Below are positions 2,331-27,285 of a stretch of 30,253 bases of DNA, piece after piece (the first letter of the stretch is position 1; the number at the start of each line of letters is the position of its first letter). This DNA comes from Chloroflexota bacterium (GTDB lineage Bacteria; Chloroflexota; UBA11872; UBA12225), in the NCBI GenBank assembly GCA_016199265.1, contig JACQGX010000284.1, positions 1-30,253 on the forward strand, read 5' to 3'. The position numbers were made by a program, and so were the translations under genes. The notes beneath the pieces are model-generated. The model saw nothing but the letters and a program-made list of their open reading frames with translations. It was not told the origin of the DNA and did not search any database.

Positions 2331-3485
2331 TCAGACCGCCGCGAGGGCCGGTTGACGCGCGGCCTGCGCCAGTACGTGCCGCAGCCGGGCCGCTACCTGT
2401 TCGGCTTCGCCGGGCTCGAGGTTGTGAGGGTTAATGGTGACCGAGTCGCGGGAGTGGGCGACGGCGATGGGTGGATCGCCATCGCGAAGCCGGGCGGCGA
2501 GCTCGGGTGCGGTGAGGCCGGCGCGTGCGGGGTCGACGGTGAGCCTGGCCTGGGGAATGGTGCGCGCGATGATGCGTTCGGCGGCGACGCCGTCGAGGCC
2601 GCGCACGGCGTCGAGGACAGTCTGCGCGCAGGCGTCCCAGTAGCGCAGGTCGGCGGCGTGGTCGCGGCTGACGTAGAGCTCGACGGCTTTGAGCAGGCCG
2701 GCTATCTCTTCCTTGCCGACCTTCATGGGACGCCCCATCGAGGCGTTCGGGTTGGTGTTTAGGCGGCAGGCTTTGATCAGCTCCGCTTTGCCGAGGATCA
2801 GGCCCGACGACTGCGGGCCGCGCAGGCCCTTGCCGCCGGAGAAGACGACGAGGTCGGCGCCGAGCTCGCTGAACGTTCGTAGATTTCCGGGCGGCGGGAG
2901 CTCGGCGGCGGCGTCGACGATCACCGGCACGCCGCGTTCGTGGGCGATCTCGACAACTTCCGCCAGACTGGTGCCGGTCGGGAAGCGCGCGTTTCCCGGC
3001 AGCTCGCCGCCGCAGAAGGTGACGGCCACGGTACGCTCTGCGATCGCGGCTCTGAATTCGTCGGGTGTGGCGCCGGCTGGGCCGCCGATGTCGACGAGCC
3101 GCGGGCCGGCATTGCGGTAGCCCTGAGCGTAGCCGGTGACATGCGTCTTCTGGATGACGATCTCGTCCTTCGCGCCCGGCCAGTCGAGGTGCGGCAGCGC
3201 CCGAATCCTCTGGGGATCGGTCCCGGCGACGCACGCGGCGGTCGAGATGGCCAGCCCGGCGGCGGCGCCGCACACCATCGCGGCGTCCTCGATGGCGGGC
3301 GAACCGAGCAACTGGGCGACCTTCCGTCCGGCCGCGCGATGGAGCTCCGGCAGCTCGACGTAATTGCCGCCCGCGCGCCGCATCACCTCGAGCACTTCGG
3401 GAGGCATGAGGCTGCCGCCGAGCCGAGTCTTCATCCCATCGGCGTTGATGACGGTTCGTAGGCCGAGCTCTTGGTACGGGTTCAT
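2331..3485 (-). CDS. SelA-like PLP-dependent enzyme (L-seryl-tRNA(Sec) selenium transferase-related family). Probable start is the internal ATG (MNPYQELG...) with GAGAGGTG RBS; the track ORF extends to 3521.
   Basis: FSGGKGLRGPQSSGLILGK resembles the SelA PLP-lysine region (SGDKLLGGPQAG). Fold-type I PLP enzyme length. Confidence 0.7.
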   Translation of the reverse strand: MNPYQELGLRTVINADGMKTRLGGSLMPPEVLEVMRRAGGNYVELPELHRAAGRKVAQLLGSPAIEDAAMVCGAAAGLAISTAACVAGTDPQRIRALPHLDWPGAKDEIVIQKTHVTGYAQGYRNAGPRLVDIGGPAGATPDEFRAAIAERTVAVTFCGGELPGNARFPTGTSLAEVVEIAHERGVPVIVDAAAELPPPGNLRTFSELGADLVVFSGGKGLRGPQSSGLILGKAELIKACRLNTNPNASMGRPMKVGKEEIAGLLKAVELYVSRDHAADLRYWDACAQTVLDAVRGLDGVAAERIIARTIPQARLTVDPARAGLTAPELAARLRDGDPPIAVAHSRDSVTINPHNLEPGEAEQVAARLRHVLAQAARQPALAAV

Positions 3486-3568
3486 AGGATCTTGCACCTC
3501 TCGTGTGTGTGCCCCCATCATAGGCGATCACAAGCGATATGGGATCCGCCCCGCCGCGTTACGGCGAC

Positions 3569-10741: not shown

Positions 10742-12676
10742 CTACAGACCGCCGGCCGGGGACTCGGTTCGCAGCCAGGAGGCGGCGCCCATGACCACGG
10801 TGAGCAGGGACACGAGCACGGCGCCTTCCGGCTGGTTGCTCTGGTCGAGCGCCATTGCCCACAGGATCGCGCCGACTATCGACGCGATAAGCACAATGAC
10901 GGCCAGCGTCGAGTGGCCGTGTTGCACCAGCCAGCGGCGCACACCGATCGTGAACACGGCGGCGACCGCAAAGATCAACAGGAGCAGACGCAGGGCATCA
11001 TCGGCAACGAAGACGACTAGCGGCGCAAGCGCGACGAATGCCACTTCCAGCGGCAGAAAAGCGCGCGGTGGCGTTTCGCCGTCATCCGATCGCATCCCCG
11101 GCCGCAGCGCCCTCGCCACCTTGAAGATCCGCACAAACCGCAGCAACCGAAGCGCGCGCAGCGTCTTGAGCGATTGAAGATTGAGCGCGACCAACAACGT
11201 TGGCAGGATGGCTAGGAGATCGACGATCCCCCACGGGCCGAGCACGTACCTCCAGCGGCTCGCGGCGTATACGATGCTGAGCGCGTAGTCGGCAACGAAA
11301 CAGACGGCAACCGCGATCTCCAGCCAGAAGAAGAGATCTCCGTATGCCTCCAGCAGCGCGGCGTCGTGCTCTAGCAGCGTGACCACAACCGACACGACGA
11401 CCAACGTCACGACGACCTCGGTGAGCGTCGCGGCCTCCTGCGAACGCTGGTCGACGTATGCCTGCCTCAGCCAGCTCACCAGCTGCTGCTTCCATGTCGT
11501 GCGGGGCACCGCCGCCGCGACCGCCGGTTTTGGTGGCAGCGCGGGTGCCACCGGCGCCGGCGGCGGTTCGGCGATACCGGTCTTCTGAACAGGTGCCGGC
11601 CCTTGGGCGCCACCGGCCCCTCGATCGGATCGCGCCACGCTTCCCGCTGCAGCCGGGTCGGTAGCCTGCCGGACCGACGTATCGGGCGCGGTGGTCGTGG
11701 CTGCGGCAGCCGTGGTAGGTACCGTCGCCGCGCCGGCCGCGCCGGCCGCGCCGGTCGTCGCAGCCGCCGTGTTCGCCGCGACCGCCGGCGGCGCGGTCGC
11801 GGTAGGTGCGTCGGCGGTCGCCACCACAGGCGGCGCCGGTGCGGGTAATGGGGCAGCAGACGAAGGCGGCGGCGATGCCGGTGCCGCCGAAGCGTCAGGC
11901 AAGGTCAGGTGCAGCAGTTGGGTGTTGATTGTCGGTGCGGCCGCCGGCGCCGGAAAGTCTGGTGATGGCGCAAATGCCGGTGGCTCTGGAAACGCCGGCG
12001 CCGGCGAAAACAGCGGTGTCGTCCCAGGTTCGGGAGTCTCGCTCGAGACAGGAGCAGACCGACCGGCGATGGCGAGCGGCGCCGCCGGAAACACCGGCGG
12101 CGCGGCAAACTCTGGTGCCGCCGAAAACGCCGGAGCCTCCGGCGCAGCCGGGGACTCGACCGTCGCCAGCCGGATGCCGGCCGCGAGCCCGGCCACCACC
12201 GCCGGGTCGAGTGCCCTAGCCGGCGGCGCCGCCTCGGTCGAGGCCGCGCCTGCCGCCGGCCCGCCCAGCGCGAACCCGGCACGGCCGGCATGTCGTTGCG
12301 TCGCCGGACTCTCCCACGTAGGGATGAAGGGGACTGAGGCGCTCGCCGGGCCACCATTTCCCCTCTCGCCCGCGGGCGAGAGGGGGCCAGGGGATGAGGG
12401 GACGTTCGGCGCCGGTCGGGGTTCGACCGTCGCGCCGCAGCGGGTGCAGAACTTCGCCCCGGCGCGCGCCGGCGTGCCGCAAGCGGCACACCAATACTCG
12501 ACGACAGTAGCCGCGGCCGCACCGGCCGCATGCGCCGCAGTCGCCGGGGCCAGGGCCGCACCGCAGCGGGTGCAGAACTTCGCCCCGGCGCGCGCCGGCG
12601 TGCCGCACTTCAGACAGCGGCTCGTCGCGCCGTCTGGCGCAGTCTCGTGTGGTATGGCCTGCGGTACGGAAGTCAC
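10742..12676 (-). CDS. Membrane protein. N-terminal double zinc ribbon (2 x CxxC-x10-CxxC), roughly 300-aa Pro/Ala-rich low-complexity linker, C-terminal voltage-sensor-like ion_trans domain (S1-S4 plus 3-4 further TM). No recognisable K/Na/Ca selectivity filter.
   Basis: CLKCGTPARAGAKFCTRCGA and CAACGTPARAGAKFCTRCGA. S2 FFWLEIAVAVCFVADYAL, S3 WGIVDLLAILP, S4 LRALRLLRFVRIFKVARALRP with Arg at every third position. GTG start with GGAGG RBS. Confidence 0.7.
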   Translation of the reverse strand: MTSVPQAIPHETAPDGATSRCLKCGTPARAGAKFCTRCGAALAPATAAHAAGAAAATVVEYWCAACGTPARAGAKFCTRCGATVEPRPAPNVPSSPGPLSPAGERGNGGPASASVPFIPTWESPATQRHAGRAGFALGGPAAGAASTEAAPPARALDPAVVAGLAAGIRLATVESPAAPEAPAFSAAPEFAAPPVFPAAPLAIAGRSAPVSSETPEPGTTPLFSPAPAFPEPPAFAPSPDFPAPAAAPTINTQLLHLTLPDASAAPASPPPSSAAPLPAPAPPVVATADAPTATAPPAVAANTAAATTGAAGAAGAATVPTTAAAATTTAPDTSVRQATDPAAAGSVARSDRGAGGAQGPAPVQKTGIAEPPPAPVAPALPPKPAVAAAVPRTTWKQQLVSWLRQAYVDQRSQEAATLTEVVVTLVVVSVVVTLLEHDAALLEAYGDLFFWLEIAVAVCFVADYALSIVYAASRWRYVLGPWGIVDLLAILPTLLVALNLQSLKTLRALRLLRFVRIFKVARALRPGMRSDDGETPPRAFLPLEVAFVALAPLVVFVADDALRLLLLIFAVAAVFTIGVRRWLVQHGHSTLAVIVLIASIVGAILWAMALDQSNQPEGAVLVSLLTVVMGAASWLRTESPAGGL

Positions 12677-12938
12677 CTCGTTTGCCTCCGCTTTCCAGGG
12701 TTAACGGGCACCGGCGCGCTCCACCGAAACAGGCACGTGCTCCATTTCTACGGCCCGCTGGAGTAACACGCGCCCTCGGCCGGCTAGCAGAGTAGGGCTA
12801 ATTGGCGGTTCCGGCGCAGCATACCAGACAAATGCGCTATAACGGGCCACGCTAGCCGTTCGGCTACTTCTCGCGGCTTCCCCAACGCGGGGGGTCTGTG
12901 GGGTACTGCGGGGCATTCAGAACGTAAGGAGCACCACC

Positions 12939-14702
12939 ATGCCGAGATCGGGCAGTGGCACGGGTAGGACACTCATCGTATTGGCGATTCTGCTATTGGT
13001 TGGACCAAAACTCCTATCGCTCGTGCCGGCGCGTAATCTCGCGCTCGACCCGAGCACGGAGCTGATCGTCACAGCGGCAGGTGCCGGTCTCTTCGCGCTG
13101 GGATTGTTTCTCACCGCGTTTACGGCCATGTACCACCGCGGCGCCGCCGATCGCGCCTTCGTGCGCACCGGCCTGGGAGGGGCCAAGGTGGTCATCGACG
13201 GTGGCGCGCTGGTCCTCCCTGCGGTACACGAGGTCACCTGGGTCTCGCTGCGCACCATGCCCTTGGAGCTCACCCGCGAAGGCCAGACGGCGCTGATCAC
13301 CAACGATTGCCTGCGGGCCAACATCACCGCCGCGTTCTTCATCAAGGTGCCTAAGGAGGCCGAACCCGTTCGGACGGCGGCGACGTCGCTCGGCGCGCAG
13401 GCGATCGATCCGGCCGGCATGCTGGAGTTTCTGGAGACCAAGCTCGAATCGGCGCTACGGGAAGTCGCGTCCGAAATGGCGCTCACCGAGCTGCTGATCA
13501 ATCGCAGCGAGTTCGTGCGCCGCATCACCGACCGCGTCAGCCGCGACATCGCGAGCAACGGCCTTGCGCTCGAGGGCGTCACGATCGCCAAGCTCGACCA
13601 GACGCCTACCTCGGCGCTGCGCGCCGAGGACAACGTCGTCGACGCGCAGGGCGCCAAGAAGATCATGGAGATCACGACGGCGCAGAACATCGAGCGCAAC
13701 CGGCTCCAGCTCGAGGCGCAGCGCCTGATCGAGCAGGAAAAGGTACGGACGAACCAGTTCCTCTACGAGCTCGAAGTGGCCCGCGCCTCGGCCGAGGCCG
13801 AGCGGGTGAGCCAAATCAAGGTGGCGCAGGCGGCGGCCGAACAGGAAGCGGCGACAAAATCCGCCGAACAGGTGCGCCTGTCGAAGATGGCCGAAGTCGA
13901 GCGCGACCGGGCGATCGAGCTCGCCGAGGTTGCCCGCCAGCAGGCCGTCGAGGTCGCCAACCAGGAGCGCGAGCGCGCGACGATGATCGCCAGAATCGGC
14001 AAGGAGCAGGCGCTCGAGGTGGCGAATCGCGAGCGCGAGATCGCCGTTGCGGCGAAAGAGACCGAACGTTCGCACGCGATGGCGCAGCAGCTCGAGGCCG
14101 AGGCGCTCAAGACGAGGGCTGAGCAGGAGGTCATCGCCGTCCAGGCGGCGGCCGAGGCCGAGCGGCGCGCCAACGCCCGCGTAATCGAGGCCAGGGCCGA
14201 ACAGGAAGCACGCGCGCTAGACGCGGAGGGCGAGAGAACTCGCCAGCTCGTGCCGGTCGAGGTCGCACGCGCGCAGGCGGAGGTCGAGCGCACCCGGCTC
14301 AAGAACCAGTCAGAGTTCGAATCGATCGCCCGCGACCTGCCGCTTGCGATGGCACGCATCGAAGCCGAGCGCGAGGTCGGTCTCAAGTCGGCTGAGGCGC
14401 TGGGCGCGGCGCTCTCGCAAGCCAAGCTGGTGATTTACGGCGATCCCTCCACGCTCGCCCAGGTGTCGCGCGCGTTTACGCGCGGCCAGATGCTCGGGGA
14501 GACCGCGAGCGGATTCGCCGGCGCCGCCCCGCCGCAGTTGGTGAACGGCGCCAACGATCTGGCCCAATGGCTCGCCGGCCTCGTCAAGCACCAGTTCGGC
14601 GTCGAAGTCGCCCCGGACACCATGAAAGACTTCATCAAGCAAGGCGCCCAGGGACCTGCCGGGCCTGATGCACCGGCGCATGCCGGAGCGACATCGACTT
14701 GA
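12939..14702 (+). CDS. Flotillin-like SPFH/band-7 protein (YqiK/FloA-like) with a long EA-rich coiled-coil region.
   Basis: N-terminal TM segment plus PHB domain, then Ala/Glu-rich flotillin repeats (AEAERVSQIKVAQAAAEQEA...). GTAAGGAG RBS. Confidence 0.9.
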   Translation: MPRSGSGTGRTLIVLAILLLVGPKLLSLVPARNLALDPSTELIVTAAGAGLFALGLFLTAFTAMYHRGAADRAFVRTGLGGAKVVIDGGALVLPAVHEVTWVSLRTMPLELTREGQTALITNDCLRANITAAFFIKVPKEAEPVRTAATSLGAQAIDPAGMLEFLETKLESALREVASEMALTELLINRSEFVRRITDRVSRDIASNGLALEGVTIAKLDQTPTSALRAEDNVVDAQGAKKIMEITTAQNIERNRLQLEAQRLIEQEKVRTNQFLYELEVARASAEAERVSQIKVAQAAAEQEAATKSAEQVRLSKMAEVERDRAIELAEVARQQAVEVANQERERATMIARIGKEQALEVANREREIAVAAKETERSHAMAQQLEAEALKTRAEQEVIAVQAAAEAERRANARVIEARAEQEARALDAEGERTRQLVPVEVARAQAEVERTRLKNQSEFESIARDLPLAMARIEAEREVGLKSAEALGAALSQAKLVIYGDPSTLAQVSRAFTRGQMLGETASGFAGAAPPQLVNGANDLAQWLAGLVKHQFGVEVAPDTMKDFIKQGAQGPAGPDAPAHAGATST

Positions 14703-18664: not shown

Positions 18665-19732
18665 TCATTCGTCTTCCAGCAGTTCGTCCGGCGGCACCTT
18701 TACCCTGACCTGGACCGGCCGGCCGTCGCGCTCGACTTCGACCGTCTCTTCGATTGGATAGTCCTCGTCGGTCAGCTCGTCTTCGTGGCGCTCGCAGAAC
18801 GTCACCAGCGCCTCGATCGCCAGCGCCGCGCGCCCGGCCTCGTCTTCGTTGATGTCGCCGGGCGGTGCGTCGCCACCCATCGCGCCGAACGTCGGCACGA
18901 CGGTGGTCCGGCGCGGCCAGCCGTTCTTGGCGAGCTGGTCGCGGTACTCCGGGACGACGTCGCTCCGCCGGTCGAAGCTGATCAGTATGGTGCGGTGGCG
19001 CAGCGCCTCCAGGATCTCATCTGCTTCTTCGTCATCCGGCGGCGGTAGTGGCGTGCCGGGTGGCCCGACCACCTCCTCTCCCACCTCGACGAACCGCTCG
19101 AGGTCGTCGAGCGAGCCGTACAGCGCGATGCCGAGCACTTCTCGATTGGCGCCCAAAACGGAGGCGTAGAGGGGCGGCTCGTCCTGCGGGACGAGCTCGA
19201 GCGGCGGATAGTCATGGACGTACTGCCACGGCTTGGCGCGCCAGAGCCGGGCGCATGCTTTGCAGAGCGCCGCGATCGCGGGATCGGGAAGGTCGAGCGT
19301 CGGATGTCGCTGCTGCTCGTAGTGCTCGAAGAACGAGCGGAACAGCTCGTCGAATTCGTCGAACGGCTCGGTCAGCTCGAATGCGATGCGTGGGTCGTCG
19401 AGCAGGAGGCGTACCTCGCGTGCGAGCGCCTCGTCGAAGAGCACCAGCTTCCCCGGCAGCTCCTCCCGTGGCCCAAACGGTGGTGGTCCCGCTTCGACGA
19501 GGGCGTGGACGAGCGTCTGTGCGCGCTCGCCGGGCTTCCCTACCATCATGCCCCAGATCAGGCCCGTATCGGGCTGCGCCCAGATCGCCACGTCGGGGTG
19601 GTAGAGACGACCATCGTCGTCGCGCACCTGCATCGGTCCTGTGCGCACGTCGCCGATGAGCGTCAGCGACCGGTTAACCGGCAGACGACTCCGAGATGAA
19701 TCGGCCGTGCGCCCTTTCTTCCGTGAGGCCAT
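18665..19732 (-). CDS. Hypothetical acidic protein (355 aa), no recognisable domain. Start at the internal ATG (MASRKKGRT...); the track ORF extends further, to 19954.
   Basis: GAGGAGGG RBS 4-5 nt upstream of ATG 19732. Coding-like composition. C-terminal acidic tail DELLEDE. Divergent from csoR. Confidence 0.55.
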   Translation of the reverse strand: MASRKKGRTADSSRSRLPVNRSLTLIGDVRTGPMQVRDDDGRLYHPDVAIWAQPDTGLIWGMMVGKPGERAQTLVHALVEAGPPPFGPREELPGKLVLFDEALAREVRLLLDDPRIAFELTEPFDEFDELFRSFFEHYEQQRHPTLDLPDPAIAALCKACARLWRAKPWQYVHDYPPLELVPQDEPPLYASVLGANREVLGIALYGSLDDLERFVEVGEEVVGPPGTPLPPPDDEEADEILEALRHRTILISFDRRSDVVPEYRDQLAKNGWPRRTTVVPTFGAMGGDAPPGDINEDEAGRAALAIEALVTFCERHEDELTDEDYPIEETVEVERDGRPVQVRVKVPPDELLEDE

Positions 19733-19828
19733 CGCGCCCTCCTCATGCTTAGCATGCTGGATAGGACGCGGTTCGCGCAACCCGGCCCGTTGACCGAACC
19801 CGGTGCGCGGTGTGCTATAGTCAACGTG

Positions 19829-19858
19829 CGAGGCACCCCTCCCCCCGGGGGGAGGGGT
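19829..19858. promoter_or_regulatory. 30-bp perfect palindrome GGCACCCCTCCCCCC/GGGGGGAGGGGTGCC between divergent genes, immediately upstream of csoR. Candidate CsoR operator, overlapping a TGCTATAGT extended -10-like element.
   Basis: Known CsoR operators are GC-rich pseudo-palindromes with a C-tract/G-tract core. This one sits about 20 nt upstream of the csoR start and 10 nt downstream of TATAGT. Confidence 0.5.
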
Positions 19859-19877
19859 GCCCACGAGAGGGAGCCAT

Positions 19878-20174
19878 ATGCCATCGGCGCAGGGACGAAC
19901 GCAGATTGTGAATCGGTTGAAGAGCGTCGACGGCCATCTGCGCGGCGTGATCAAGATGGTCGAAGAAGACGCTTACTGCATCGACGTGATCCAGCAGTTG
20001 CGCGCCGTCCAGGCCGCGATCAATAGGGTCAACGCACTGCTCTTGGCCGACCACCTCGACACGTGCGTCACGACCGCGATCCGAAGCGACGAGCCGACCG
20101 AGCGCGAGCGTGTCATCGGCGAACTGCTCCGCGTCTTCGAACACGGTGCCGATGCAGCAGGCAGCAGGCAGTAG
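19878..20174 (+). CDS. csoR: CsoR/RcnR-family copper-sensing transcriptional repressor
   Basis: [43 protein letters not shown] matches the CsoR core, including the YC...H...C metal ligands (C..., H..., C in DTC). GAGAGGGAG RBS. Located directly upstream of copA. Confidence 0.85.
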
Positions 20175-20188
20175 GCAGCAGGCAGCGG
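20154..20188 (+). repeat. Tandem heptamer array GCAGCAG GCAGCAG GCAGTAG GCAGCAG GCAGCGG spanning the csoR stop codon and the copA start region.
   Basis: Read directly. The csoR TAG stop is the TAG inside the third unit. Confidence 0.85.
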
Positions 20189-20196
20189 CACGCGAC

Positions 20197-22860
20197 ATGA
20201 AGACACTCGATCACGCGGCACAGATGAACACCGCGACGGATACGGGCCAGCGCCAGACCGGCGCGAACGGCGCCGCCGAGCGTACAGCAGTCAGCGGCAG
20301 CGCCGCGCCGCCGGCGGCCGCCGAGCTTACCTTCCCCGTCACCGGCATGACGTGCGCCTCGTGCGTCCGGCGCATCGAACGCTCGCTCTCCAAGGTCGAA
20401 GGCGTTGTCGAGGCCAACGTGAACCTCGCCACCGAGCAGGCGACGGTTCGTTACGATCCCAGCGCCCCGACGCTCGCCGAGGCGCCGCCGATGGCCGTCT
20501 TCCGCGCCGCCGTCGAGCGCGCAGGATACGGCGTCCGTGAGACCGAGCCGGCCTCGCCCGCAGCGGGGGCGGCCATGATCGAAAGCTCGGAAGCGCGCGC
20601 GGCCGCGGACGAGCGGCGTGAGACCAGGACGGTGTTGGCCAAGACCGGCCTCTCGCTTGGCGTCGCCGCGATCATCATGGGGCTGATGTTTTTGCCGGCT
20701 CGCCTGATCGGCGTGCCGGCACTGCCGTGGAGCATGGAGCTGCTCAACTGGCTGTTCTTGGTCCTGGCGACGCCGGTGCAGTTCTGGGCCGGTTGGGATT
20801 TCTACCGCGCGACGTGGGCGGCCGCGAAACACGGCGCGACGAATATGAACACGCTCGTCGCCGTCGGCACGAGCGCCGCCTACGTCTACAGCGCCTTCGC
20901 CACATTCTTTCCGCAGGTGCTGGCCGGTGCCGGGATCATGCCCGAGACGTACTTCGACAGCTCGACGATCATCGTCGGCTTGATCCTGCTCGGTCGCTAC
21001 CTCGAGCATCGCGCGCGCGGCCAGACGAGCGCCGCGATCAAGAAGCTGATCGGGCTGCAACCCAAGACGGCCCAGGTGATCCGCAACGGCGAAGAACACG
21101 ACGTGCCGGTCGAAATGGTACAGATCGAGGACATTGTCCGCGTGCGCCCGGGCGAGAAGATCCCCGTCGACGGCGTCGTGCTCGAGGGCCGCTCGGCGGT
21201 CGACGAGAGTATGCTGACCGGCGAAAGCCTGCCGGTAGAGAAGGGGCCGGGCGATCAGGTGATCGGCGCCACGCTCAACGCCACCGGTGCGTTCACGTTC
21301 CGCGCGACACGCGTCGGTACCGACACGACGCTCGCGCAGATCGTGAAGCTGGTGCAGGAGGCGCAGGGCTCCAAAGCACCGATCCAGCGCCTCGCCGACC
21401 TGATCTCGTCGTACTTCGTACCGGTCGTTCTCGTCGTGTCCGCGTTCACGTTCGGCGTCTGGTACGTTTTCGGTCCGGAGCCGCAAGTCACCTTCGCGCT
21501 CACCACCTTCATCGCCGTCCTTATCATCGCCTGCCCGTGCGCGATGGGCCTGGCGACGCCCACCGCCATCATGGTCGGCACCGGCCAGGGCGCCGAGCAC
21601 GGCATCCTCATCCGCGGCGGCGAGGCGCTCGAGCAGGCGCACAAGGTGCGCGCGATCGTCCTCGACAAGACGGGGACGCTGACGCAGGGCAAACCGGCGC
21701 TGACGGACGTCAACTCAGTCCAAAGTCCAAAGTCCAAAGTCCAAAGTAATGGGCCATCCGGCTGGGGACTGGGGACCGGGGACCGGGGACTGCTGCGCCT
21801 CGTCGCCGCTGCCGAGCGGAACTCGGAGCATCCGGTGGCGGCGGCGATTGTGGAGGGGGCGCGGGCGCGCGGCGTCGAGCTTGTGGAGGCGGAACGATTC
21901 GAGTCGGTGACGGGGCGGGGCGTGGCTGCCGTCGTCGATGGGCATTTCGTGCTCGCGGGCAACCAGGCGCTCCTGGCCGATTACAGCGTCTCACTCGACG
22001 GGCTTGAGACGCAGGTAGCGGCGCTCGCACGGGAGGGCAAGACGCCGATCTACGTCGCCGTTGACGGCGCGGCGGCGGGCGTGCTGGCGGTCGCCGATAC
22101 GCTCAAGCCGACGTCGCCGCAGGCGGTGGCGCAGCTCGAAGCGCTCGGGCTCGAGGTCTGGATGCTCACCGGCGATAACCGGGCGACCGCCGAGGCGATC
22201 GCGCGGCAGGCCGGGATCGTACCCGAGCGCGTGCTCGCCGAGGTACTGCCCGATCAGAAGGCGGCGCAGGTCAAGGCGCTCCAAGCGCGCGGCCTGCCGA
22301 CCGCCATGGTCGGCGACGGCATCAACGACGCGCCGGCGCTGGCGCAGGCCGATCTGGGGATCGCCATCGGCACGGGGACGGATGTCGCCATGGAGGCGTC
22401 CGATGTCACGCTCGTCGGCGGCGATCTGCGGGGCGTCGTCGCGGCGATCGCCCTGTCGCGCCGGACGATCGACGTCATCCGCCAGAACCTGTTCTGGGCG
22501 TTCGCCTACAACGTCCTGCTCATCCCCGTCGCGATGGGCGCGCTCTACCCGTTTTTTGGCATGCTGCTGAACCCGGGATTGGCGGCCGGCGCGATGGCGC
22601 TCTCGAGCGTGTCGGTCGTTACCAACTCGCTCCGGCTCCGTGGCTTCCGGGTGCCGGATGATCCGCGCGATATTACACACCCACCGCTCGGCGCCCGCCT
22701 GCGCGAGTGGAGCTATCTCGCCGGAATCGCGGCCATCGCGCTCGCGCTCGGCGCGGCCATCATGTGGTGGTCGGCCGGCCGCGGCCCGGCGGACCAGGGC
22801 GAGCAGCAAATGGCGACAACTCAGGCCGATTCAACGCAACACAAAGGAGGCACACAATGA
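20197..22860 (+). CDS. copA: Copper-translocating P1B-type ATPase. Track ORF starts at GTG 20110; an ATG at 20152 is also possible.
   Basis: N-terminal HMA domain [13 protein letters not shown] motif [20 protein letters not shown] phosphorylation site. GDGINDAP hinge. Contains a 26-aa in-frame heptamer-repeat insertion after [16 protein letters not shown]. Confidence 0.95.
21718..21791 (+). repeat. Two adjacent tandem heptamer arrays inside the copA coding sequence: (GTCCAAA)x4 then (GGGGACY)x4. In-frame; encodes [25 protein letters not shown].
   Basis: Located right after the [16 protein letters not shown] phosphorylation loop. The equivalent linker in characterised CopA proteins is about 15 aa shorter. 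Confidence 0.85.
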
Positions 22861-24852: not shown

Positions 24853-27285
24853 TTGGCCGTCCGGTTTCCCTGGTATTGGGCGAAAGGCAGAGGGGAATGC
24901 TGCATTCGACCTGCGCCTTTCGCCCTTCGTCATGTTCCTGCAGTGATTAGTCAGACACCCACAGCATCGCACTCGCCCGCCGCTTCTCCGACCGCTTCAG
25001 GCGCCCGCGGCCTCCGGGCCCAACTTGCCCGCACGTACGTTGCGGCGCTCGGCCGGATGGACAACCCAAGTCTCCTGCCGCTCGCACTCGCCCAAGCCGG
25101 CTCGCTCGTACCCGATGGCCCGAACGGCTTGGCGCTGCTGCACGAGTTTGCCGGCCGTCCGGAATGGCCGGCGCGCTACCTCGCCGCGCGGCAGCTCGGC
25201 GAGCGTGGCGCCGCTGCCGGCGCCGAAGCGCAGGCGGCCGCCTGGCCGGTGCTTCTGTATTTGGCGGCCGATACGGAACGATGGGTGGCCGAAGGCGCGG
25301 CCTGGGGCCTCGGCGCGCTCCTCCGCGCTGATCCAGAACGGTGGGGGCCGGCCTTTCTGGCGGGGTTTGGGGGAGAGGCGACGGCGGCTGCGGTACGACG
25401 CGCGTTGCTCTTCGGCGTTGTGCCGGCGTTGCGGGAGGGCCCTGACGGTGCGCGGCGCATCGCACTCGAGGTGATCGATTGGGCGGCGGGCGATCAATCG
25501 AGCGCGACGCGGCAGCTCGGCTCGTTGATTGTCGGACGCGAAGCGGCGGAGCACGCGCCGGACACAGCGCTCGATCTGGTGGAGAGATGGGCGTCGTCCG
25601 GCGATCCCGCCCGCCAATGGCAGGCCGCGCGCGCGCTGACGGCGAGCCTGCGCGCGATCGACGAGCAGCGAGCGGCCGCGATCGTGACCCACCTCGAAGC
25701 CTCTCCCGATCCCGCCGTGCGCAACGCGCTGCGCGGTGCCCTGAGGGAGGGGACCGAGGACGAAGACGAGGTGGTCGGGCACGGACCGCAACACAACAGA
25801 ACGGGCGGAACAGGGGACATGGCCGTATCACACGGGGCCTTGGCACCGGCCTCCACCACCGCTAGGCCCGCGCCCGCCGAATACACGACCAACCGCGCCC
25901 CCACCGTTCCCGTGGCACCCACGCCTGACGGCGCCGCCTCCGCCGTATCTCCGTCCCCCGGACCCTGGCAGACGACGGCCGACATTCCGGTCAGCGACGA
26001 CTTGATCGACCAGGTCATCGGGCAGGACCGCGCGGTCGAGATCGTGCGTCTCGCCGCGCGGCAGCGGCGCTTCGTCCTGATGGTCGGCGAGCCGGGTACG
26101 GGCAAGAGCATGCTCGCTGCAGCGATGGCCGAGATGATGGGCGCCGACGATCTCGAGGACGTACTGGTGCTGCCCAATCCGGAGAGCCGGATTACGCCGC
26201 AAGTGGAGGTCACGCCGGCGGCGCAGGGTGAGCAGGCCGTGCGGGAGGCGAAGAAACGGCGCGGCGAAGCCGAGACGGCGATTACGTTTCTGTTCTGGGC
26301 CGCGTCGATCGCGACGACGCTCATTGCCGGCTGGTACGCGCTGGCGACCAGGAGCGCCGTACCGGGAATCGCCGCGGCGGTCGTGGTCGCAGTGCTGTGG
26401 GGCGTGCGCCGCATGTTCCGCGCGCCGGCGCGTCACCCGGTGCCGAAGCTGCTCGTGAACAACGCTCGGGCCGTCGAGTCCAACCGGGCGCCGCTCGTCG
26501 ACGCCACGGGGTTCCACGCCGGCGCGCTGCTCGGCGACGTCCGGCACGACCCGTTCCAATCGGGCGGCTACGAGACGCCGCCGCACGAGCTCGTCGAGCC
26601 AGGCGCGATTCACCTGGCGCATCGAGGGGTGCTCTTTATCGACGAGGTTTCGACGCTCTCGATCGAGTCGCAGCAATCGCTGCTGACCGCGATCCAGGAA
26701 AAGCGGTTCCCGATTTCGGGCCGCACGCTCGGCTCCTCGGGCACGATGATCCGGTCCGCGCCCACGCCGTGCGATTTCCTGCTCATCCTTGCGGGGAACA
26801 TGGAGGATGTGCAGAAGATGCATCCTGCGCTGCGCTCGCGCGTCCGCGGCTACGGCTACGAGATCTATGTGAACGAGGACATGCCGGACAGCGAGGAGAA
26901 CCGGGCCAAGCTGGCACGCTTCTGCGCACAAGAGGTGCGGAAAGACCGCAAGATCCCGCACCTCAGCCGGGCAGCGGTCGACGCGGTGATCGACGAGGCG
27001 CGCATTCGCGCCGGAACCAGGGACCGGTTGACGACCCGCCTGCGCGAGCTAGGCGGGCTCATCCGTGCCGCCGGCGACCTCGCCGTGCAAGAGGGCGCAC
27101 CGCTCATTGAACCGCGCCACGTCATCGCCGCCCGCCAGAACACCCGGACGCTGGAAGAGCAAATGGAGGCGAGGAAGTCTACTTCGCCACGTCTTCCAGC
27201 TCCGGCAGTAGCACCACGCTCTCCTGCTCGTTCGGATCGGTCCGCGCGAGGATGGCGGTACACGGCTCGGTTTGGCTCAGGTTGA
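24853..27285 (+). CDS. Fusion protein. N-terminal HEAT/AlkD-like helical repeat domain, then an archaeal-type LonB AAA+ module with a two-helix transmembrane insertion between Walker A and Walker B. No Lon protease domain. Start uncertain; an ATG at 25057 is possible.
   Basis: DLIDQVIGQDRAVEIVRLAARQRRFVLMVGEPGTGKSML (Walker A). LEDVLVLPNPESRITPQVEVTPAAQGE. TM hairpin AITFLFWAASIATTLIAGWYALA / GIAAAVVVAVLWGV. GVLFIDEV (Walker B). RFPISGRTLGSSGTMIRSAPTPCDFLLILAGN. HPALRSRVRGYGYEIYV. All are LonB-type signatures. The ORF ends about 60 aa after the AAA lid, inside the antisense of the cupin gene. Confidence 0.65.
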   Translation: MAVRFPWYWAKGRGECCIRPAPFALRHVPAVISQTPTASHSPAASPTASGARGLRAQLARTYVAALGRMDNPSLLPLALAQAGSLVPDGPNGLALLHEFAGRPEWPARYLAARQLGERGAAAGAEAQAAAWPVLLYLAADTERWVAEGAAWGLGALLRADPERWGPAFLAGFGGEATAAAVRRALLFGVVPALREGPDGARRIALEVIDWAAGDQSSATRQLGSLIVGREAAEHAPDTALDLVERWASSGDPARQWQAARALTASLRAIDEQRAAAIVTHLEASPDPAVRNALRGALREGTEDEDEVVGHGPQHNRTGGTGDMAVSHGALAPASTTARPAPAEYTTNRAPTVPVAPTPDGAASAVSPSPGPWQTTADIPVSDDLIDQVIGQDRAVEIVRLAARQRRFVLMVGEPGTGKSMLAAAMAEMMGADDLEDVLVLPNPESRITPQVEVTPAAQGEQAVREAKKRRGEAETAITFLFWAASIATTLIAGWYALATRSAVPGIAAAVVVAVLWGVRRMFRAPARHPVPKLLVNNARAVESNRAPLVDATGFHAGALLGDVRHDPFQSGGYETPPHELVEPGAIHLAHRGVLFIDEVSTLSIESQQSLLTAIQEKRFPISGRTLGSSGTMIRSAPTPCDFLLILAGNMEDVQKMHPALRSRVRGYGYEIYVNEDMPDSEENRAKLARFCAQEVRKDRKIPHLSRAAVDAVIDEARIRAGTRDRLTTRLRELGGLIRAAGDLAVQEGAPLIEPRHVIAARQNTRTLEEQMEARKSTSPRLPAPAVAPRSPARSDRSARGWRYTARFGSG

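Follow-up and report, generated by a model that had tools for sequence, protein, structure and literature searches.

Voltage-sensor domains (VSDs) outside canonical channels are known only from a few eukaryotic proteins, namely Hv1, the voltage-sensing phosphatases (VSP), TMEM266 and SLC9C1, and current reviews place bacterial VSDs within Kv and Nav channels. Hv channels have not been found in bacteria or archaea (2024 review, PMC13095418), and all pore-less VSD proteins in the literature that we searched, with incomplete coverage, are eukaryotic. Here we describe a bacterial gene, located at 10742..12676 on the reverse strand of a window that is the complete 30,253-bp contig JACQGX010000284.1 of a Chloroflexota metagenome-assembled genome (MAG). 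Its 644-residue product is identical to NCBI MBI3973058.1, annotated as 'zinc ribbon domain-containing protein', and consists of two N-terminal zinc ribbons, a long Pro/Ala-rich linker, a Kv-type VSD and four further predicted transmembrane (TM) helices. The arrangement had been noticed in an earlier, sequence-only reading of this open reading frame (ORF), and that observation is confirmed.

The closest described systems are bacterial six-transmembrane (6TM) Kv channels with a C-terminal zinc ribbon (e.g. an Algoriphagus 'ion transporter', Ion_trans plus Ion_trans_2), with which the window protein has in common the S1-S4 sensor (35-46% VSD identity), the S2/S3 charge-transfer centre, the S4 ladder and a cytoplasmic CxxC...CxxC ribbon. 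However, the window protein has none of their P-helix, TxGYG filter and S6, while its four post-S4 helices, its pre-S1 helix and its IE(S/G)PAG end motif are all absent from Kv channels. The ribbon, single and C-terminal in Kv channels, is here N-terminal, duplicated and carried on a 300-residue tether.

Among eukaryotic proteins, Hv1, Ci-VSP/TPTE and TMEM266 likewise possess a VSD without a canonical pore domain, but there S4 is followed by a cytoplasmic coiled coil or a phosphatase, whereas in the window protein it is followed by a TM module. S1 of Hv1 contains an Asp, and its S4 only three arginines; the window VSD is Kv-like by sequence, with an invariant Ser and no acid in the middle of S1, five to eight basic residues in S4 across the family, and four TM helices after it. 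The PTEN-like phosphatase and C2 domain that follow S4 in VSP gave no Pfam or NCBIfam match in the window protein, where this region is wholly transmembrane. In the sperm Na+/H+ exchanger SLC9C1 a VSD is also covalently attached to a membrane module that is not a channel, and regulation by a cyclic nucleotide-binding domain (CNBD) is a theme common to both. In SLC9C1, however, the VSD comes after a 13-TM NHE domain and the CNBD is fused, whereas in the family described here a four-helix module comes after the VSD and CNBD or RCK proteins are encoded, if at all, by a separate neighbouring gene, in two distant relatives only.

Voltage sensor and post-S4 helices

Pfam Ion_trans (PF00520) matches residues 422-524 of the window protein (E 4.5e-12, 46 bits against a cut-off of 25), over profile positions 8-115 of 241, that is, the VSD half only. 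S4 carries a basic residue at every third position (K504, R507, R510, R513, R516, K519, R522 and R525), and E453, F460 and D463 in S2 together with D486 in S3 make up a gating-charge transfer centre (an outer acid, F-x-x-[E/D] in S2 and an Asp in S3). The Kv1.2 equivalents E226/F233/E236 have the same 7+3 spacing as E453/F460/D463. In 13 family members D463 and D486 never vary and F460 rarely does, and four to six of the S4 charges are conserved along with the S2 E-x6-F-x2-D spacing and the S3 Asp; E453 is invariant in the seven closest members only, two others having Asp or no such residue. In the family-specific helix that precedes S1, Y407 is invariant and W402 nearly invariant. An hhalign comparison of the family VSD profile with the VSD of the bacterial Kv channels closest to it gives 99.8% probability (E 1e-29), and the family profile matches Kv4.2, Kv1.2 and Shaker in the PDB (E 4e-18 to 1e-12). 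At the level of sequence, every residue class needed for voltage sensing is present and conserved.

After S4, hydropathy and AlphaFold (monomer predictions throughout) both give four TM helices, H5 to H8, which are modelled with a pLDDT of 80-82 (82 when the module is modelled alone) and in which a DD hairpin tip, an RRW motif, an Asp at the outer end of H7 and an Ala are conserved, the last two being invariant. Because the HMMER alignment to Kv4.2, Kv1.2 and Shaker extends past S4 into H5, this first helix occupies the S5 position, and it may be an S5 remnant. A tight Asp-Asp turn directly follows it, however, and therefore there is no space for a turret, P-helix or filter. Judged by its loop charges, the module would cross the membrane four times and end inside, with the RRW-bearing H6-H7 loop in the cytoplasm and the acidic H5-H6 and H7-H8 loops outside. 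No Ion_trans_2 match was obtained on the window protein, a GYG or TLESW-type motif is absent from every family member, and in hhalign the post-S4 module reaches a probability of 0.65% when compared with the pore half of the closest bacterial Kv channels. The window protein thus lacks a pore domain of the S5-P-helix-filter-S6 type. A textbook S1-S4 with a regular S4 ladder, three to four TM helices after it and the lack of any recognisable pore or filter had all been claimed from the sequence alone, and all three claims hold; the S4 sequence quoted in that reading occurs in the protein, and the helices number four.

Other origins of the four-transmembrane (4TM) module were considered and rejected. 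As a degenerate second VSD it scores 0.5% in hhalign, and as a duplicated two-helix hairpin 0.8%. The C-terminal 'WLxIE(G/S)PxG' looks by eye like the end of Kv S5, 'LIEGxxxGF', but the likeness has a significance of 0.65% and clashes with the four-pass positive-inside topology, and we take it as a coincidence.

We interpret these proteins as an 8-TM family that would descend from bacterial Kv channels, having kept the S1-S4 sensor and possibly the S5 position, and in which the K+ pore parts (P-helix, selectivity filter and S6) appear to have been replaced by a conserved and tightly packed helical module. The positions of all features are given in Table 1.

Table 1. Features of the gene at 10742..12676 and its surroundings, in coordinates of the 30,253-bp window.
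Feature	Residues	Position	Strand	Basis
Whole gene, 644 aa plus stop	1-644	10742..12676	-	ORF list, Pfam, protein match
Shine-Dalgarno-like GGAGG		12685..12689	-	read from sequence
Predicted zinc ribbon 1, CLKC-x10-CTRC	21-38	12563..12616	-	Pfam and motif
Predicted zinc ribbon 2, CAAC-x10-CTRC	63-80	12437..12490	-	Pfam and motif
51-nt direct DNA repeat, copy 1 (reference), under zinc ribbon 2		12431..12481	.	repeat search
51-nt direct DNA repeat, copy 2, under zinc ribbon 1		12557..12607	.	repeat search
Ala/Pro-rich low-complexity linker (303 aa)	90-392	11501..12409	-	composition
Family-specific pre-S1 helix, W..WLR.AY.D	393-416	11429..11500	-	family alignment, AlphaFold
Voltage-sensor domain S1-S4	417-525	11102..11428	-	Pfam, family alignment, profile comparison
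Short acidic post-S4 loop, poorly conserved, low pLDDT	526-540	11057..11101	-	AlphaFold, conservation
Family-specific four-helix TM module H5-H8	541-637	10766..11056	-	hydropathy, AlphaFold, conservation
Conserved C-terminal end motif ESPAGGL	638-644	10745..10765	-	family alignment
Weak terminator-like hairpin with T-rich tail, directly past the stop codon		10711..10727	-	2 sites found, 1.1 expected
Divergent neighbour, flotillin-like SPFH/Band_7 protein, 587 aa (context only)		12939..14702	+	Pfam Band_7, weak FloT match

The family and its distribution

The family is recognised by a pre-S1 W..Y helix, a Kv-type VSD, four post-S4 helices with the DD turn, RRW and the invariant Asp and Ala, and a C-terminal IE(S/G)PAG(G)L. 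The window protein has all of the invariant residues, aligns from end to end with the homologues P0001-P0006 at 39-44% identity, and matches the 4TM profile with an E-value of 2e-42. When its C-terminal 252 residues were compared with 5.8 billion clusters, six proteins (255-278 residues, 40-44% identity) covered the whole query, and the remaining matches were Kv channels aligned over the VSD only. When 1.84 billion representatives were scanned exhaustively with an HMM of the post-S4 part, 12 proteins emerged, the window protein included, with lengths of 279-307, 535 and 644 residues plus fragments of 56-180, and in every full-length match (about 280 residues or more) the VSD lies upstream of the 4TM module. 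A word-indexed search with the 4TM profile, in which candidates are pre-filtered, gave a single fragment; the count of 12 rests on the exhaustive scan. Of 185,579 species genomes, one, belonging to an uncultured Chloroflexi MAG, has a family locus, and three loci were found in JGI metagenomes. The family is thus very rare, and all members that bear a source name are Chloroflexota.

Family members are 22-83% identical to each other, the mean over pairs being 46% for the VSD, 38% for the 4TM module and 60% for the C-terminal end motif. Because the 4TM module is conserved almost as well as the VSD, we take it to be an integral part of the protein that is under selection, and purifying selection acts on both parts across the family. 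No description of the VSD+4TM architecture was found in the literature searched, whose coverage was incomplete, so that a prior description is possible. That these proteins form a distinct family of pore-less Kv-type VSD proteins we regard as very probable.

Possible outputs of the voltage sensor

Our best reading is that of a Kv-derived, self-contained, voltage-controlled membrane protein, which would be either a non-canonical conduction unit or a non-conducting potential sensor. Because there is neither an enzymatic domain nor a conserved neighbouring gene, we expect the output to come either from the 8-TM core or from a partner whose gene lies elsewhere. S4 would shift with the membrane potential, and its motion would be passed on by the short post-S4 loop to the 4TM bundle and to a conserved cytoplasmic face composed of RRW, W..IE, the ESPAGG motif and the pre-S1 helix. 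If we were to commit to a guess, the output would be a voltage-controlled, non-canonical path for ion conduction or transport formed by oligomerised 4TM modules, with the acidic tip of the H5-H6 hairpin facing outside together with the invariant H7 Asp. The zinc-ribbon tether would be a lineage-specific cytoplasmic accessory, in a position similar to that of the ribbon at the C-terminus of the closest Kv channels.

Hints in favour of conduction or transport come from the Kv ancestry, from the acidic tips of the outer loops and from the RCK and CNBD proteins encoded next to two members of the distant subclade, the two in it whose gene context is informative. In P0130 (L006:1554-2480) the neighbour is a soluble TrkA_N/RCK protein 205 nt upstream, and in P0131 (L010:228-872) a stand-alone cNMP-binding protein 32 nt upstream, both on the same strand as the family gene. 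RCK and cNMP-binding proteins are classical regulators of cation channels and transporters. Conduction or transport as the output is nevertheless a tentative choice, which may well turn out to be wrong. To the wider proposal, that this would be the first prokaryotic VSD family without a canonical pore, in which a Kv-type VSD drives a new four-helix effector (conduction path or potential sensor) with possible links to complex I in one clade and to RCK/cNMP regulators in another, we assign a probability of about 40%.

Several observations weigh against our main reading. The TM cores of H5-H8 have no conserved charged or polar residues, and Gly, Ala, Ser and Thr abound in them, the composition of a tightly packed, compact bundle. 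No similarity to a known pore or transporter emerged. When modelled alone, the 4TM module finds structural matches only among generic or designed helix bundles. A Pfam search with all 4TM sequences at E <= 10 yielded no consistent family but scattered hydrophobic noise, a PDB profile search with the 114 residues past S4 at the same threshold yielded no sequence match, and the 0.65% probability against Kv pore halves belongs here too. The RCK and CNBD neighbours are one instance each. The zinc-ribbon extension is seen in this single MAG contig only, and G+C content at third codon positions (GC3) falls to 0.60-0.68 over linker residues 176-250, compared with about 0.84 in the adjacent genes, a dip that we cannot explain other than by a low-complexity, repeat-prone segment.

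If the wider proposal is correct, the VSD has been re-used as a portable module in prokaryotes too, and the family would offer a small system (about 255 residues) for the coupling of S4 to an effector that is not a pore. It could reveal a new pore architecture, or else a direct bacterial sensor of membrane potential, a subject still debated in bacterial electrophysiology. The protein would then be a member of the VSD superfamily in which a known kind of sensor is joined to a new post-S4 part, a putative effector module.

The alternative that survives best is a sensor or regulator that does not conduct at all, whose 4TM bundle and cytoplasmic face would dock a partner encoded elsewhere, such as respiratory complex I, and whose zinc-ribbon tether would in the window protein recruit or scaffold a cytoplasmic component. 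Such a role would suit the absence of a pore signature of any type and the 300-residue disordered tether, which with its terminal zinc ribbons resembles an interaction module. The conserved residues, too, cluster where the membrane meets the cytoplasm: in the pre-S1 helix, in W..E, in the C-terminal motif and at R and W of RRW. There is a precedent in the eukaryotic TMEM266, a functional VSD without conduction (PMC13095418). The link to complex I comes from 9 of 15 homologue loci (seven distinct contigs: L001, L002/L003, L004/L014, L005, L012, L013 and L015), in which the family gene lies upstream of nuoA, divergent from this complex I operon, and is mostly also convergent with a gene for an NAD-dependent epimerase. 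These loci belong to one clade (P0001-P0006, the P0122 cluster, L013 and L015), and their NuoA proteins are 83-98% identical, meaning that the genomes are closely related and that the synteny may be a matter of inheritance alone. Because the clade is so narrow, the synteny is only a weak sign of a functional link, and nuo genes do not adjoin the window gene or the family genes of four other lineages. No enzymatic output domain is present either, and the six distinct gene neighbourhoods of the family have no neighbour in common. We consider a purely regulatory role almost as probable as conduction or transport, and as tentative.

An artefact or a decaying gene is less probable by far. By this explanation, mis-assembly or read-through would have joined a zinc-ribbon gene to a VSD gene, or the protein would be a Kv remnant on its way to loss and without voltage function. 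The zinc-ribbon form is indeed a singleton, all 12 homologues lack the ribbons, long chance ORFs are common at 69% GC, and the GC3 dip falls within the linker. However, the gene is one uninterrupted 644-codon ORF that starts from a GTG at 12676 with GGAGG 8 nt upstream, and because both ends of the frame are Pfam-supported, no stop intervenes and a Shine-Dalgarno sequence precedes the upstream start, translation from that start must give the fusion product. An assembly artefact was also among the refutations named in the sequence-only reading, and nothing in the assembled sequence points to one. Other frames are open across this region too, but what they encode is Arg-rich junk, a usual effect of 69% GC. 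Potential internal starts for a short, homologue-like product (GTG at residues 347, 376, 390 and 400) have no convincing Shine-Dalgarno sequence. Pro/Ala-rich N-terminal tails also recur among the homologues, with about 20 residues in P0003-6, about 45 in P0122, about 190 in P0130, and 64 in L003 if an upstream ATG is used. The start of the window protein, MTSVPQ, resembles those of homologues (MTSAVQ, MATVIQ, MAAVIQ), which over six residues is weak support. Decay is further opposed by the signs of purifying selection on both VSD and 4TM module. From the tails it would seem that a short Pro/Ala-rich N-terminus common in the family has here grown to some 300 residues and gained two recently duplicated zinc ribbons.

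A further alternative is conduction by the VSD itself, either as an Hv1-like proton channel or through an omega-type pore, with the 4TM module merely anchoring or dimerising it. Conduction by a VSD alone is established for eukaryotic Hv1 (reviews), and it would give the family a pathway where no other is obvious. However, the mid-S1 position is Ser where Hv1 has its selectivity Asp, S4 bears Arg or Lys at all of the positions R1-R4, the C-terminal coiled coil is absent, and the VSD is nearest to those of Kv channels, not Hv1. In Kv and Nav channels, Arg or Lys at R1-R4 occludes the gating pore, as known from omega currents. Because S1 is without the Asp and the arginine ladder of S4 is full, Hv1-like conduction is very unlikely.

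Finally, an ordinary voltage-gated cation channel with a P-loop too divergent to recognise, which is what the sequence-only reading had named as its own refutation, can hardly be the answer: although the Kv HMMER alignment reaches into H5 at the S5 position and the C-terminal W-L-x-I-E-[GS]-P-x-G is weakly like the S5 end of bacterial Kv channels, the tight DD turn leaves no room for a pore loop, the positive-inside rule and four hydrophobic helices give a four-pass module that does not fit S5-P-S6, filter motifs are absent, and Pfam, PDB profile search and hhalign are all negative.

Zinc ribbons, linker and neighbouring genes

The N-terminal ribbons exceed the curated cut-offs of several Pfam families, with 42.6 bits for Zn_Ribbon_1 (PF13240, cut-off 25), 38.4 bits for DZR (PF12773, cut-off 27.3), and Zn_ribbon_3 as well. 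Two CxxC-x10-CxxC ribbons are what the window protein has in common with the double zinc ribbon modules (DZR / Zn_Ribbon_1) of bacterial membrane proteins, and by its two pairs of CxxC knuckles it would qualify as a double zinc ribbon. The underlying direct repeat has copies that are 98% identical at an offset of 126 nt. Near-identical ribbons encoded by a DNA repeat and followed by a spacer of about 300 residues rich in Pro and Ala had been read from the sequence; ribbons and spacer are borne out, and the repeat is real but shorter than the 66-nt spans proposed for it, over which 55 of 66 bases are identical. The linker (28.7% Ala, 20.5% Pro) is presumed to be cytoplasmic and disordered. Between residues 182 and 241 (window 11950-12140) it holds seven PxF motifs in a roughly six-residue register, and an 18-nt tandem array at 12077-12141 overlaps this region.

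The ribbon module is most closely related to one protein, P0137, whose 175 residues include three ribbons separated by Pro-rich spacers. We found no zinc ribbons in the family homologues and no second protein in the collections searched in which the ribbon module is joined to the VSD+4TM core. By contrast, a C-terminal CxxC-x11-CxxC ribbon ends 106 of the 114 nearest Kv relatives (P0008-P0120), which are 6TM channels with a TxGYG filter. The statement that the domain combination is not that of a described family can therefore be kept for the VSD+4TM architecture and for duplicated, long-tethered N-terminal ribbons (on one contig), while the pairing of zinc ribbon and Kv-type VSD as such is recurrent.

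As an observation in its own right, a large 'Kv + zinc ribbon' subfamily is apparent among bacterial 6TM Kv channels, for which we found no functional description; the ribbon at the end of most of these channels points to an unstudied regulatory element.

The flotillin-like gene is divergent from the window gene across a gap of 262 bp, and the pair had been suggested to form a membrane-organisation module. The suggestion does not survive comparison with other loci: in tblastn the window flotillin has no match at E <= 1e-5 in any of 15 family-bearing loci, and the Band_7 domain is absent from all gene tables of the homologue loci. Because it is missing at all 15 of these loci, we judge the pairing to be specific to this contig, and probably coincidental. 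Relatives of the PMT_2 glycosyltransferase encoded downstream in the window were not found in the same 15 loci, and two further lineages of the family have unrelated neighbours. A PADLOC scan for defence systems had no match for the gene or its neighbours, and no Rfam family or tRNA was found within the window.

Some minor observations were made on other genes. At one of the nuo loci (L012:2033-3022, reverse strand) the NuoC protein (Complex1_30kDa) of the complex I operon adjoining the family gene bears an N-terminal Prok-RING_1 zinc-finger domain. At two others (L001:3664-4122 and L002:5254-5724) the reading frame of a Bcp/PrxQ-type peroxiredoxin is interrupted by a stop exactly where its peroxidatic Cys would be (FYPRADTxG*T), and the protein is probably a selenocysteine enzyme that gene callers have split into two ORFs. 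In the window, the gene at 2331-3521 (reverse strand) encodes a PLP-dependent enzyme for which Pfam gives a SelA-like match (L-seryl-tRNA selenium transferase, E 2e-10), and that at 18665-19954 (reverse strand) a 429-residue protein pairing DUF6930 with DUF7309. On the forward strand, a copper P-type ATPase of the CopA type, whose N-terminus carries an HMA domain, is encoded at 20110-22860, and an 810-residue LonB-like protease at 24853-27285, in which the LonB match begins at residue 372 after a long N-terminal region.

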